A DNA stretch of 64,000 nucleotides from positions 4 through 64,003 of the forward strand of contig JANPMV010000001.1 of assembly GCA_031427135.1 (NCBI GenBank). The letters are read 5' to 3'. The translations under genes and the position numbers were made by a program. The DNA is from Cyanobacteria bacterium VAR_87_metabat_62. Its GTDB lineage: Bacteria > Cyanobacteriota > Cyanobacteriia > Cyanobacteriales > Microcoleaceae. The notes under the pieces are model-generated. The model ran no database searches and was not told where the DNA came from. It saw only the letters and a program-made list of their open reading frames with translations. Shown here piece by piece: positions 45,265 through 48,747 of this stretch; positions within the stretch are counted from its first letter, which is position 1, and the number at the start of each line of letters is the position of its first letter.

Positions 45265-45340
45265 AGTCCCGTAGGCAAATTGGTTTAAGCCGTCACCCTC
45301 TCTGGCGTGAAAATTACGAGTTCAAACCTCGTCGGGACTC
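45265..45340 (+). tRNA. tRNA-like, irregular anticodon arm (CTC, Glu-like)
   Basis: Acceptor AGTCCCG/CGGGACT and a good T-arm. The anticodon arm has one extra nt (TCACC-CTCTCTG-G[C]GTGA). Confidence 0.5.
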
Positions 45341-45343
45341 CCA

Positions 45344-45475: not shown

Positions 45476-45571
45476 AGCAGCGTAGCTTAATGGTAAAGCC
45501 CCAAGTTCATGCCTTGGCAATTGCGAGTACCGCTTCGCGGAAGCAAGCTACAAGTCCCGCCACTGCTACCA
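45476..45571 (+). tRNA. tRNA(CAT) Met-type with an about 21-nt insert in the T-loop; CCA encoded
   Basis: Anticodon arm CCAAG-TTCATGC-CTTGG. T-stem GCGAG/CCCGC encloses 28 nt. The 3' end reads ...CACTGCT-A-CCA. Confidence 0.5.
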
Positions 45572-47150: not shown

Positions 47151-47990
47151 ATGAGACGGATTGCGATCGCTCAAGATACACTAAAGATCATTGAAGCAGG
47201 CTACTACTGCTCTCCAGAAGGTAAACGCATTGAACTTGTTCAAAAAATAGCATCCTGTCTTGAACAGACCAAATCCTATGAACCCGATGCTCTTTCTAAG
47301 CTCAAACAAGTTGTTCTTTCTGCTACTTCATCATTCTCAAATATTGAATTTGAAGTTAGGAATGAGACGACTTTGATGGGAGCAGAACGTATGGCAACAG
47401 GACAACAGTTTCAAAAGATTGGAGTCCTTAATTTTGCTTCCGCTAAAAATCCTGGTGGTGGATTTCTCAAAGGCGCACAAGCTCAAGAAGAGAGTTTAGC
47501 ACGCAGTTCTGCTCTTTACAAAAGTATTTTAAAATGTCGTGGTCATTATGAATTTCATCGCTCTTATAATTCGCTCCTGTATTCCGATCGGATGATCTAT
47601 TCACCTGATTGTCCTGTTTTCCGAAAAGATGATGGAACGCTATTAGAAACACCTTATCTTGTTGATTTCATCACAAGTCCGGCTCCTAATGCTGGCGAAG
47701 TTTGGAGAAAACAATCCCAGGATGCTGAAAAAATACGCGAAGTTCTATATGAACGCGGTGCAAAATTGTTGAGCCTAGCTATTTCTAATGGCTGTGATGC
47801 TCTAGTTTTAGGAGCTTGGGGATGTGGTGTATTTAGAAATAAACCATCAATGGTTGCTCAAGTGTTTGCAGATTTATTATTCCCTAATAGTCAATTTTCG
47901 GGAAGAATAAAAAACATCTTATTTTCTGTACTTGACTCTTCTGAACAAGCAAAAGTATTTGCGGAATTTTATACTAGATTTATTTTGTAG
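47151..47990 (+). CDS. bacterial-type poly(ADP-ribose) glycohydrolase-like macrodomain protein (DUF2263/TIGR02452-like)
   Basis: 279 aa. NFASAKNPGGGFLKGAQAQEESL contains the PARG signature GGG-X7-QEE. Embedded in the tRNA array. Confidence 0.8.
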   Translation: MRRIAIAQDTLKIIEAGYYCSPEGKRIELVQKIASCLEQTKSYEPDALSKLKQVVLSATSSFSNIEFEVRNETTLMGAERMATGQQFQKIGVLNFASAKNPGGGFLKGAQAQEESLARSSALYKSILKCRGHYEFHRSYNSLLYSDRMIYSPDCPVFRKDDGTLLETPYLVDFITSPAPNAGEVWRKQSQDAEKIREVLYERGAKLLSLAISNGCDALVLGAWGCGVFRNKPSMVAQVFADLLFPNSQFSGRIKNILFSVLDSSEQAKVFAEFYTRFIL

Positions 47991-48111: not shown

Positions 48112-48122
48112 TGGCTAAAGAT

Positions 48123-48195
48123 GGGAGTGTAGCTCAATGGATAGAGCGCCGCGCTTCGGACGCGGATGTTGTGGGTTCGACTCCTACCACTCTCG
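48123..48195 (+). tRNA. tRNA-Arg(TCG)
   Basis: Acceptor GGGAGTG/CACTCTC, arm CCGCG-CTTCGGA-CGCGG. Confidence 0.85.
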
Positions 48196-48296
48196 TTGTT
48201 TTTGCTTGAATTTAAGGAGGTTGATTCCATTGAATGATTGATTTTTTATAGTAACCCCGATCGCCCTTTTGCGTGTCCCAATCTTTGGATCCTACA

Positions 48297-48320
48297 TACT
48301 TTAGTACGAGAGGAAAGGTA
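48297..48320 (+). ncRNA. hairpin carrying an exact copy of the 23S rRNA sarcin-ricin loop dodecamer
   Basis: ACTTT-AGTACGAGAGGA-AAGGT. The loop at 48303-48314 equals the universally conserved AGUACGAGAGGA. Confidence 0.6.
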
Positions 48321-48508
48321 ACGCTGTCAAAAAAACGGCGCGCGTTTGTAAACGAGGAGTGCATTGAACCCGATAGGTAGGCTTAAAAGTAGCCATCCTT
48401 TAAAGAGTGTGTAGCAACTCATCGGCGGAGTCCCTCTAGTAACTCAGAAAACGCAATGCTCTGATAACTTATACGCAAAGTGCGATCGTGCAAAGCAACC
48501 AACAATAC

Positions 48509-48582
48509 GGGAGTGTAACTCAACTGGACAGAGTGTCGAGCTTCTACCTCGAAAGTTGTGGGTTCGGGTCCTACCACTCCTG
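48509..48582 (+). tRNA. tRNA-Arg(TCT)
   Basis: Acceptor GGGAGTG/CACTCCT, arm TCGAG-CTTCTAC-CTCGA. Confidence 0.8.
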
Positions 48583-48588
48583 TTAAAT

Positions 48589-48670: not shown

Positions 48671-48747
48671 GGGTCTGTAGCTTAATTGGAAAAGCACCTA
48701 GTTCGCTGCTAGGAAAATGTCGGTTCGAGTCCGATCGCGATCCACCA
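48671..48747 (+). tRNA. tRNA-Ala-like (CGC), loop TTCGCTG; CCA encoded
   Basis: Paralogue of 48589, with G3:U70, A73 and the same bulged C. Confidence 0.55.

Follow-up and report, generated by a model that had tools for sequence, protein, structure and literature searches.

Every translational GTPase is recruited and activated by two elements of ribosomal RNA (rRNA), the sarcin-ricin loop (SRL) and the L10/L11 stalk base. Individual rRNA sites are also imitated off the ribosome. The leaders of ribosomal protein (r-protein) operons, e.g. those of L10 or L1, are cis-regulatory mRNA segments that loosely imitate one rRNA site. To our knowledge, no natural reconstruction of the factor-binding centre outside the ribosome has been described before. 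Here we report a candidate for such an RNA, encoded in a stretch of 64,000 nucleotides from the cyanobacterium VAR_87_metabat_62 of the Microcoleaceae (contig JANPMV010000001.1; the window hereafter). This SRL/GAC RNA is a widespread, structured and previously unannotated RNA that rebuilds the SRL and the GTPase-associated centre (GAC) on a stem resembling that of Y RNAs.

Y RNAs are modular: they bind Ro60 through a terminal stem and carry at the opposite end an effector module, which is tRNA-like in the bacterial YrlA RNAs, an arrangement captured in a gate or tether model (bioRxiv 10.1101/312249). YrlA RNAs are encoded beside rsr and RNA-repair genes (PMC4201824; bioRxiv 10.1101/312249). 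A motif for Rsr binding, GNCGAAN0-1G, has been proposed for them at a 5' position (Chen et al. 2014, PMC4201824), and few YrlA RNAs have been found in cyanobacteria (PMC4201824). A further point of comparison is the tRNA L-array of Anabaena, which is induced by translation inhibitors and translational stress (PMC8421152).

The SRL/GAC RNA occupies a 311-nt spacer (48197-48507) between the genes for tRNA-Arg(tcg) (48122-48196) and tRNA-Arg(tct) (48508-48583). An earlier note on this DNA had reported a stand-alone hairpin with a 12/12 match to the SRL in a 313-nt gap, free of open reading frames (ORFs), between the same two genes. The location was right and the hairpin is real and non-random, but the gap is 311 nt long and the hairpin does not stand alone. 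It is one arm of an RNA of ~210 nt built around a four-way junction, in which an adjacent mimic of 23S rRNA helices 42 to 44 (H42-H44) had been overlooked. The parts of the RNA are listed here by position.

48269-48478, + strand: the whole conserved RNA, ~210 nt (profile match, conservation profile, RNAalifold and pair counts)
48269-48276, + strand: 5' strand of the closing stem P1, UUGCGUGU, pairing with 48471-48478 (AUACGCAA); 8 pairs, 6 compensatory
48277-48284, + strand: 5' side of the internal loop of the scaffold, CCCAAUCU (family consensus CCYNAY), conserved in all module classes; a candidate protein-binding site
48285-48291, + strand: 5' strand of stem P1b, pairing with 48458-48464; 7 pairs, 4 compensatory; the window copy has a single U-C mismatch
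48297-48320, + strand: SRL-like arm, read directly, with a 6-bp stem, a variable 'flexible region', the bulged-G motif and a GAGA tetraloop
48303-48314, + strand: SRL core AGUACGAGAGGA, an exact 12-mer (23S positions 2654-2665)
48322-48340, + strand: hairpin P2, in which no rRNA counterpart was recognised; 6 pairs, all 6 compensatory
48342-48347, + strand: 5' strand of stem P3, GCGUUU, pairing with 48449-48454 (AAACGC); 6 pairs, 4 compensatory
48355-48437, + strand: mimic of the stalk base or GAC, comprising an H42-like stem with internal loop, H43 (1067 loop) and H44 (1095 loop) (Rfam large-subunit rRNA models and pair counts)

Read directly, 48297-48320 runs t-ac-ttt-AGTACGAGAGGA-aaggt-a, and the 12-mer at its centre (equivalent to AGUACGAGAGGA) is identical to the SRL of 23S rRNA, exactly as had been claimed. 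It is unique in the window on both strands even when one mismatch is allowed; by chance ~0.008 exact 12-mers, or 0.18 with up to one mismatch, are expected per window. Six pairs flank the core (U-A, A-U, C-G, U-G, U-A and U-A), one beyond the complementary positions originally listed. Family counts refer to an alignment, A2, of 72 members with mutual identity below 90%. In it the motif combines the bulged G with the GAGA tetraloop, whose closing C-G pair is kept in 72/72, and the UAC/GUA pairs that close the stem below the non-canonical 'flexible region' are present in 67-71 of the 72. The flanks of the core vary in length (0-3 and 2-3 nt), so that 36 flank variants surround an invariant centre. 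Covariation in the stem is confined to the innermost pair, for which 27 sequences have U-G, 25 U-A and 6 G-C. The earlier note had also held that the hairpin is kept by base pairs different from those of rRNA. The arm does genuinely copy the SRL, and its stem differs from that of rRNA; within the family, the near-invariance of UAC/GUA lends the idea of a kept but changing stem little weight.

The invariance of the 12-nt core in A2 is partly a matter of ascertainment, because the search pattern demanded the SRL. A sample independent of the SRL was therefore drawn by scanning metagenomes with a pattern from the GAC arm alone. Its 120 matches comprise ~94 genuine 23S genes and 26 copies of the family, two of which are 5'-truncated remnants. 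The exact 12-mer is found in 23 of the 24 copies that retain the region, and the remaining copy matches at 11/12. Separately, locus L124 (oriented, ~1778) holds a degenerate duplicate of the RNA with a mutated SRL (UAAUACAAGAGGA), which shows how the element looks in decay. Variant copies also occur at L279, L285, L268, L246 and L321: two are 5'-truncated, one has an internal deletion and two carry an insertion of ~65 nt between P3 and H42.

The second mimic, 55 nt downstream of the SRL, was found by a permissive Rfam scan of the spacer between the tRNAs. All 56 nt of 48370-48425 align to large-subunit (LSU) rRNA models at H43/H44 (44-49 bits, E ~1e-11), and the counterpart is the L11-binding GAC, E. 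coli 1052-1107. The covariance-model score thus recovers the H43/H44 three-way junction; the window copy falls just under the gathering score of 50 and other members, at 51-59, lie above it. Differences between the window's GAC stems and those of E. coli are compensated, and H43 shows the same invariance in the family as in rRNA. All 72 sequences keep A1067 and 71 keep A1095; the U1060-A1088 pair is retained too. Of the two triples between the loops, G1071/(G1091-C1100) is invariant. The other, 1072/(1092-1099), is documented for the GAC (PMC2952862, PMC8614978). Among the family members, 67 sequences have it as U/(U-A) and 3 as C/(C-G), a concerted change at three positions which argues that selection acts on the tertiary fold of the GAC. 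Many of the genuine metagenomic 23S genes (~94 loci, L238-L357) carry U1072/(U1092-A1099), not C/(C-G); the version of the triple in the mimic is therefore a natural rRNA variant.

The stem below these loops is paired and covaries (helices 7-8) and has GAGUC in common with the 3' strand of H42. Its sequence similarity to H42 is not significant in most members; one member aligns to LSU positions 1077-1160, reaching into H42. Beyond the two motifs no collinearity with 23S rRNA was recovered. Just 57 nt of the GAC arm align to E. coli-type 23S, the spacer gave no other Rfam rRNA match, and no full-length rRNA was matched by Rfam in the window. Since 57 nt align and the order of the motifs is not that of rRNA, the RNA is not a 23S fragment, and a partial duplication of the 23S gene, the outcome that would have undone the earlier proposal, finds no end-to-end alignment. 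As a separate observation, where P3 meets the H42-like stem a conserved internal loop places GAA opposite AGUA (A2 columns 98-100 and 188-191; window ~48350-48352 and 48438-48441), the consensus of a bulged-G (loop E/sarcin-type) motif, of which the RNA may thus carry a second.

The extent of the RNA was set by family conservation, which spans from ~35 nt upstream to ~175 nt downstream of the SRL. A nhmmer profile of the 72 members matches 48265-48486 with an E value of 3.6e-65. RNAalifold and explicit pair counts on A2 give an order of closing stem P1, conserved internal loop, P1b and four-way junction. Apart from P1b, three elements meet at the junction: the SRL arm, hairpin P2 and an extended arm in which P3 and an internal loop lead to the H42-like stem, H43 and H44. 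RNAalifold mispaired the SRL with the upstream UAC, and the SRL stem was set by hand. Standard pairs fill 93.9% of the A2 cells, compared with 31-54% when partners are slid by 1-3 columns. Changes on both sides are found at 29/54 pairs against 17.0 +/- 1.7 in shuffled alignments (0/500 reach 29), and in 259 cells against 89 +/- 8.4. Most of the covariation resides in P2, P3, P1, P1b and the inner H42 stem; at one pair of P3, for instance, 32 sequences have U-A and 31 have G-C. Together P1 and P1b provide 15 pairs, 10 of them compensatory, forming a terminal stem like that of Y RNAs. The support for this structure is wholly comparative. An alternative pairing was also noticed: UACAUACU (48293-48300, just 5' of the SRL) is complementary to AGUGUGUA (48405-48412, in the H44 mimic), and this pairing dominates the minimum free energy fold of the window RNA. 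Covariation cannot separate a switch from coincidence in this case because both segments are nearly invariant.

The family was collected with a composite pattern consisting of the SRL 12-mer, a gap of 50-80 nt and the helix-43 motif GGCTTANAAGNAGCC, which recovered at least 119 loci in the genome collection. Nearly all of the matches listed come from cyanobacteria, including Nostoc, Microcoleus, Tolypothrix, Moorena, Calothrix and Leptolyngbya among others; the non-cyanobacterial ones among them are one metagenome-assembled genome each from Acidobacteriota and Actinomycetota. Two copies sit on cyanobacterial plasmids with no annotation beneath them, and the composite pattern had zero matches among IMG/VR viral contigs. 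No Rfam 15 family covers the RNA, for which scans returned tRNA and partial LSU matches alone. The full-text literature searched, in which subscription journals are incompletely covered, holds no description of it or of any link between Y RNAs or Ro60 and the SRL or GAC. Conservation in homologous tRNA arrays, on which the earlier proposal depended, is borne out at ~30 array-type loci, but the array is not the general setting: ~113 of 143 loci lie outside arrays, by a cluster with a Ro60-like gene.

The window itself is cyanobacterial in character, with 45 copies of the HIP1 palindrome (GCGATCGC) and proteins 92-97% identical to those of Microcoleus. A phage origin was rejected, as neither DNA nor protein matched the phage collection. 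A separate RNA element of phages came to light in the course of these searches. The sequence GGnnGUnGGCUUAGAAGCAGCCAnCnUUUAAAGAGU, common to 84 distinct viral loci (L001-L112, IMG/VR contigs), is a near-exact copy of the GAC H43/1067 loop and junction, beyond which the likeness to rRNA ends, with no H44. It often lies directly 3' of a tRNA gene (examples are L005:3555-3581, - strand, and L002:5783-5809). Exceptions among these loci are L095, alone a true 23S gene, and L082, which keeps H44; at L025 an SRL-like hairpin (AGUACGGGAGGA) follows 252 nt downstream. The phage element has no Rfam family, no Y-like scaffold and no nearby Ro60-like gene. As kin of the SRL/GAC RNA these 112 viral loci were rejected, since scaffold and context differ and the match is limited to profile positions ~100-170, the H43 region.

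The stem that closes the SRL/GAC RNA is not peculiar to it. A scaffold reading 5' P1-CCYNAY-P1b-YUACAUAC, module, P1b'-ACUU-P1' 3' was found by systematic search in 262 RNAs at 143 loci. Its modules are of several kinds: 125 are SRL/GAC, 104 tRNA-like and ~15 tentatively similar to H69-H71, with a few of 103 nt and a few minimal ones. Scaffolded 'tRNAs' called by ARAGORN make up 59 of 67 in non-array loci, compared with 14 of 629 in arrays. Two more scaffolded RNAs occur in the window.

56393-56512, + strand: second scaffold RNA with a tRNA-like module (56417-56487 is 'tRNA-Lys ctt' to ARAGORN and a tRNA to Rfam too)
57033-57112, + strand: third scaffold RNA, whose module is a minimal 37 nt; the Ro60-like gene follows after 50 nt (partial nhmmer matches)

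The last of these folds into an 80-nt hairpin-like structure (z = -5.1; 0/200 shuffles as stable), and the family profile matches it in two pieces (57030-57118) that correspond to P1 and P1b alone. Several side observations concern the other modules. A type that starts with AUAACGGCCCUAAGGUAGUAAAGUUC was seen at L134 (oriented, ~1142-1400) and at L120, L127, L135, L138, L145, L188, L205, L229 and L234. By local alignment its first 26 nt match 23S positions 1919-1945 (H69 3' strand/H70-H71) at 22/26, and Rfam LSU models gave no match at E <= 0.05; the module may, tentatively, be a second rRNA mimic, of H69-H71. A conserved module of ~103 nt (UCUCCACCAAAC..GGUGCGUAUCUGGAGGGAUACGCUGCAAGCCUGA..) is found at L180, L184, L343 and L354:4216-4400. 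The only match to Rfam YrlA (38.5 bits, E 1.7e-5, below gathering) likewise comes from L354, from a module set in the same scaffold.

Outside arrays, the RNA is embedded in a recurrent set of genes, the window versions of which are placed at the 3' end of the tRNA array, ~9-13 kb downstream of the RNA, together with one gene inside the array.

57213-58646, + strand: Ro60/Rsr-like protein, a predicted HEAT-repeat TROVE-type ring with a vWA domain (AlphaFold2 model, fold matches)
60925-61752, + strand: P277, of 275 aa in the window, without a family match; in most non-array loci it immediately follows the RNA
61778-62470, + strand: ThiF/E1-like adenylyltransferase, after P277 (Pfam ThiF on the Nostoc homolog, E 1e-25; PADLOC E1-E2; synteny)
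47151-47990, + strand: microbial-type ADP-ribose glycohydrolase (PARG), inside the array ~300 nt upstream of the RNA (Pfam PF10021, E 9e-50)

The AlphaFold2 model of the 57213-58646 product (pLDDT 78) has Ro60 or Rsr as each of its top 13 fold matches in the PDB, over the full length, with E values of 3e-11 to 1e-8 and TM scores of 0.53-0.67; these are Xenopus and human Ro60, Deinococcus Rsr and the Ro60 of phage phiLo. A phmmer search also matches phiLo Ro60 (E 1e-4). A homolog of 477 aa lies upstream of the RNA on the same strand in 50 of the 64 non-array loci with enough flank (78%), so that, if the predicted fold is right, the RNA shares with Y RNAs the property of being encoded close to a Ro60/Rsr gene.

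On the other side, P277 (277 aa) starts ~95 nt downstream of the RNA on the same strand in 67/81 non-array loci and is followed by the ThiF/E1-like gene in 50/65. P277 has no match in Pfam, NCBIfam, PADLOC or PDB sequences, and its AlphaFold2 model is poor (pLDDT 53). In most of the exceptions the RNA 2'-phosphotransferase Tpt1/KptA, often with NADAR, is inserted between the RNA and P277. Tpt1, NADAR and PARG are recurrent direct neighbours of the RNA, PARG being just upstream of it in 7 array-type loci including the window. A simple scan for promoters and terminators around one Nostoc copy gave nothing beyond chance. Between the Ro60-like gene and P277, the window ORF at 58718-59145 (MVNEITYTDAEANLENLCDRAV...) looks, by eye, like a Phd/YefM-type antitoxin.

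The array of the window contains 27 tRNA genes called by ARAGORN, all on the + strand. In array loci the RNA begins ~70-105 nt past a tRNA, usually tRNA-Arg, and ends ~25-40 nt before the next one. A homing-endonuclease-like ORF of the HNH type lies within the array (48927-49760; PADLOC HEase, E 8.5e-14). It has homologs in other arrays and in the phage loci, and agrees with the report of an endonuclease in the trn operon of Anabaena. The tRNA at 45265-45343, between tRNA-Asp and tRNA-Cys, has a four-base anticodon (ctct) in an 8-nt loop and could be frameshift-suppressor-like or defective. Rfam further detects tRNA-like genes at 48671-48743 and 45476-45568 (39 bits each) that ARAGORN does not report.

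With this family, its structure, its mimicry, its common scaffold and its gene neighbourhood in hand, we consider it probable, at roughly 60%, that the SRL/GAC RNA is a Y-RNA-like partner of the divergent Ro60-like protein whose module mimics the ribosomal factor-binding site as a bait, decoy or tether. By analogy with Y RNAs, the terminal stem would bind the Ro60-like protein of its own cluster. Away from the ribosome, the module would present the factor-binding centre to those proteins or small molecules able to recognise it. Candidate ligands are uL10/uL11, translational GTPases, thiopeptides and toxins directed at the SRL or GAC, the latter including nucleases, N-glycosidases and ADP-ribosyltransferases. 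The window copy would be transcribed with the spare-tRNA array and released by tRNA processing. The RNA may thus serve as bait, decoy or tether in surveillance of RNA damage or repair of the translation apparatus. Such a role is favoured because the recurrence of PARG, NADAR and Tpt1, together with the spare-tRNA arrays, points to damage of the translation apparatus as the theme of these loci.

Recognition of the two motifs away from the ribosome is plausible in light of published results. As cited in PMC3496166, isolated SRL and thiostrepton-domain oligonucleotides bind EF-G (Munishkin & Wool 1997), and SRL oligonucleotides retain the specificity of alpha-sarcin and ricin (Endo 1988). Both EF-G and IF2 are bound by isolated SRL RNA, in competition with GDP (PMC3496166). 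In the GAC, H44 is a target of the ADP-ribosylating toxin Tre23 (PMC8661411).

Several observations weigh against this reading. Fourteen of the 64 non-array loci have no Ro60-like gene within 3 kb upstream, the window RNA is 9 kb away from its own, and plasmid pAfl69 carries the RNA, P277 and ThiF with no Ro60-like gene nearby. Pfam calls no TROVE domain in the Ro60-like protein. With ~210 nt the RNA is longer than described Y RNAs (~80-130 nt). The motif GNCGAAN0-1G is absent from 48261-48300, where the conserved loop is a different one (CCYNAY/ACUU), and neither the SRL/GAC RNA nor the scaffold RNAs of the window match YrlA (gathering 69 bits) at E <= 1. The main family sample was gathered with a pattern that requires the SRL and H43 motifs, and the SRL closing stem is mostly invariant and hence covaries little. 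Single-sequence folding lends no thermodynamic support: the window spacer (z = -0.38) and core (z = -0.06) both misfold, and a Nostoc member reaches just z = -1.24, though its fold reproduces the comparative structure.

A broader proposal is possible, if tentative and well short of even odds. Cyanobacteria, together with the mobile tRNA arrays and the plasmids passed between them, may use a set of Ro60-tethered 'canary' RNAs that display the hot-spots of toxins, namely tRNA, the SRL plus GAC and possibly H69-H71. A mimic hit by a nuclease, glycosidase, ADP-ribosyltransferase or antibiotic would have its damage or occupancy sensed or absorbed, and the event would be coupled to repair through Tpt1, NADAR, PARG and the P277/ThiF pair. 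On this view the factor-binding centre would have been rebuilt naturally, off the ribosome, in the SRL/GAC RNA. A small natural RNA with the SRL and stalk base would serve as a minimal model of that centre and as a probe of what recognises it outside the ribosome.

It is less likely, though it still deserves some weight, that the RNA acts as a free decoy independent of Ro60, perhaps loaded with uL11/uL10 and co-expressed with spare tRNAs in translational stress. It would then absorb attackers of the factor site, such as SRL nucleases or glycosidases, ADP-ribosyltransferases of the GAC and thiopeptide antibiotics. This would suit the ~30 loci at which the RNA is inside long tRNA arrays, given the induction of the Anabaena array by translation inhibitors (PMC8421152). 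It would also suit the adjacency of PARG, NADAR and Tpt1, the invariance of A1067 and A1095 (72/72 and 71/72), which mark the region of thiostrepton and Tre23, and the pAfl69 copy without a nearby Ro60-like gene. It leaves unexplained why the stem and internal loop are common to the tRNA-like and minimal RNAs flanking the Ro60-like gene, as well as the 78% synteny with that gene.

That the RNA instead regulates a translational GTPase is doubtful. On this account it would bind EF-G, IF2, BipA, HflX or a similar protein and sequester it or shift its nucleotide state, slowing or reprogramming translation. One RNA does combine both halves of the factor-binding centre, and the isolated SRL binds EF-G and IF2 in competition with GDP, but this oligonucleotide binding is described as weak and as triggering no GTP hydrolysis (PMC3496166). 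Moreover, no GTPase gene is among the conserved neighbours.

More improbable still is a cis-acting leader of the downstream P277-ThiF (or Tpt1) operon that senses free uL10/uL11 or another GAC ligand. Outside arrays, the next gene on the strand of the RNA does begin ~95 nt after its end (P277) or immediately after it (Tpt1). However, copies in array loci are flanked by tRNAs, P277 of the window is 12.6 kb away, the scaffold carries unrelated modules elsewhere and no terminator/anti-terminator alternative was seen. Finally, a chance match or decaying 23S fragments, of which short rRNA-like stretches from pseudogenes and the degenerate or truncated copies (the second copy at L124, L279 and L285) might remind one, are refuted by the ~0.008 exact matches expected per window, by at least 119 genome loci with compensatory changes, by the exact core in 23 of 24 copies sampled independently of the SRL and by the juxtaposition of SRL and GAC in a non-rRNA order on a non-rRNA scaffold.

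Compared with the 23S factor-binding centre, the RNA retains the 12-nt SRL core, the structure of H43/H44, A1067, A1095, U1060-A1088 and both triples between the loops. It departs from it in that the two motifs, ~1.6 kb apart in 23S rRNA, are here 55 nt apart, in reversed order and joined by a four-way junction. Relative to E. coli-type 23S the stems also differ in sequence, and an A-rich stretch instead of CC follows GGA. Like r-protein leaders, it is an RNA off the ribosome that imitates a 23S r-protein binding site; unlike them, it is a discrete gene between tRNAs with two near-exact sites and no r-protein genes nearby, and Rfam scans of the window matched no r-protein leader family. The array of the window is of the same type as the Anabaena L-array, with its 27 ARAGORN tRNAs and internal HNH endonuclease, and the RNA takes up one of its spacers. 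The L-array papers examined mention no rRNA-like element, PARG or Ro60, and most copies of the RNA are outside arrays. Isolated annotations of 'partial LSU rRNA' and 'tRNA' in cyanobacterial genomes find an explanation in the new family, which also ties spare-tRNA arrays to ADP-ribose-processing enzymes and to the defence or repair of the translation apparatus in a way open to test.

The closest relative in design is YrlA (RF02553). The SRL/GAC RNA has the structural and contextual features of a Y RNA and fails the tests specific to YrlA. Its module copies rRNA (SRL and H42-H44) and not tRNA, and the Ro60-like protein, unlike the partner of YrlA, is so divergent that the Pfam TROVE model misses it. 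In common with YrlA, it inserts a mimic of the translation machinery into a long stem paired at its ends, occurs as one of several RNAs per locus, is encoded beside a Ro60-fold gene and RNA-repair genes and has sister RNAs with tRNA-like modules, one of which the YrlA model weakly recognises. Taken together, it seems that these likenesses suggest a partner RNA for the Ro60-like proteins of cyanobacteria and would extend the Y-RNA idea from tRNA mimicry to rRNA mimicry.

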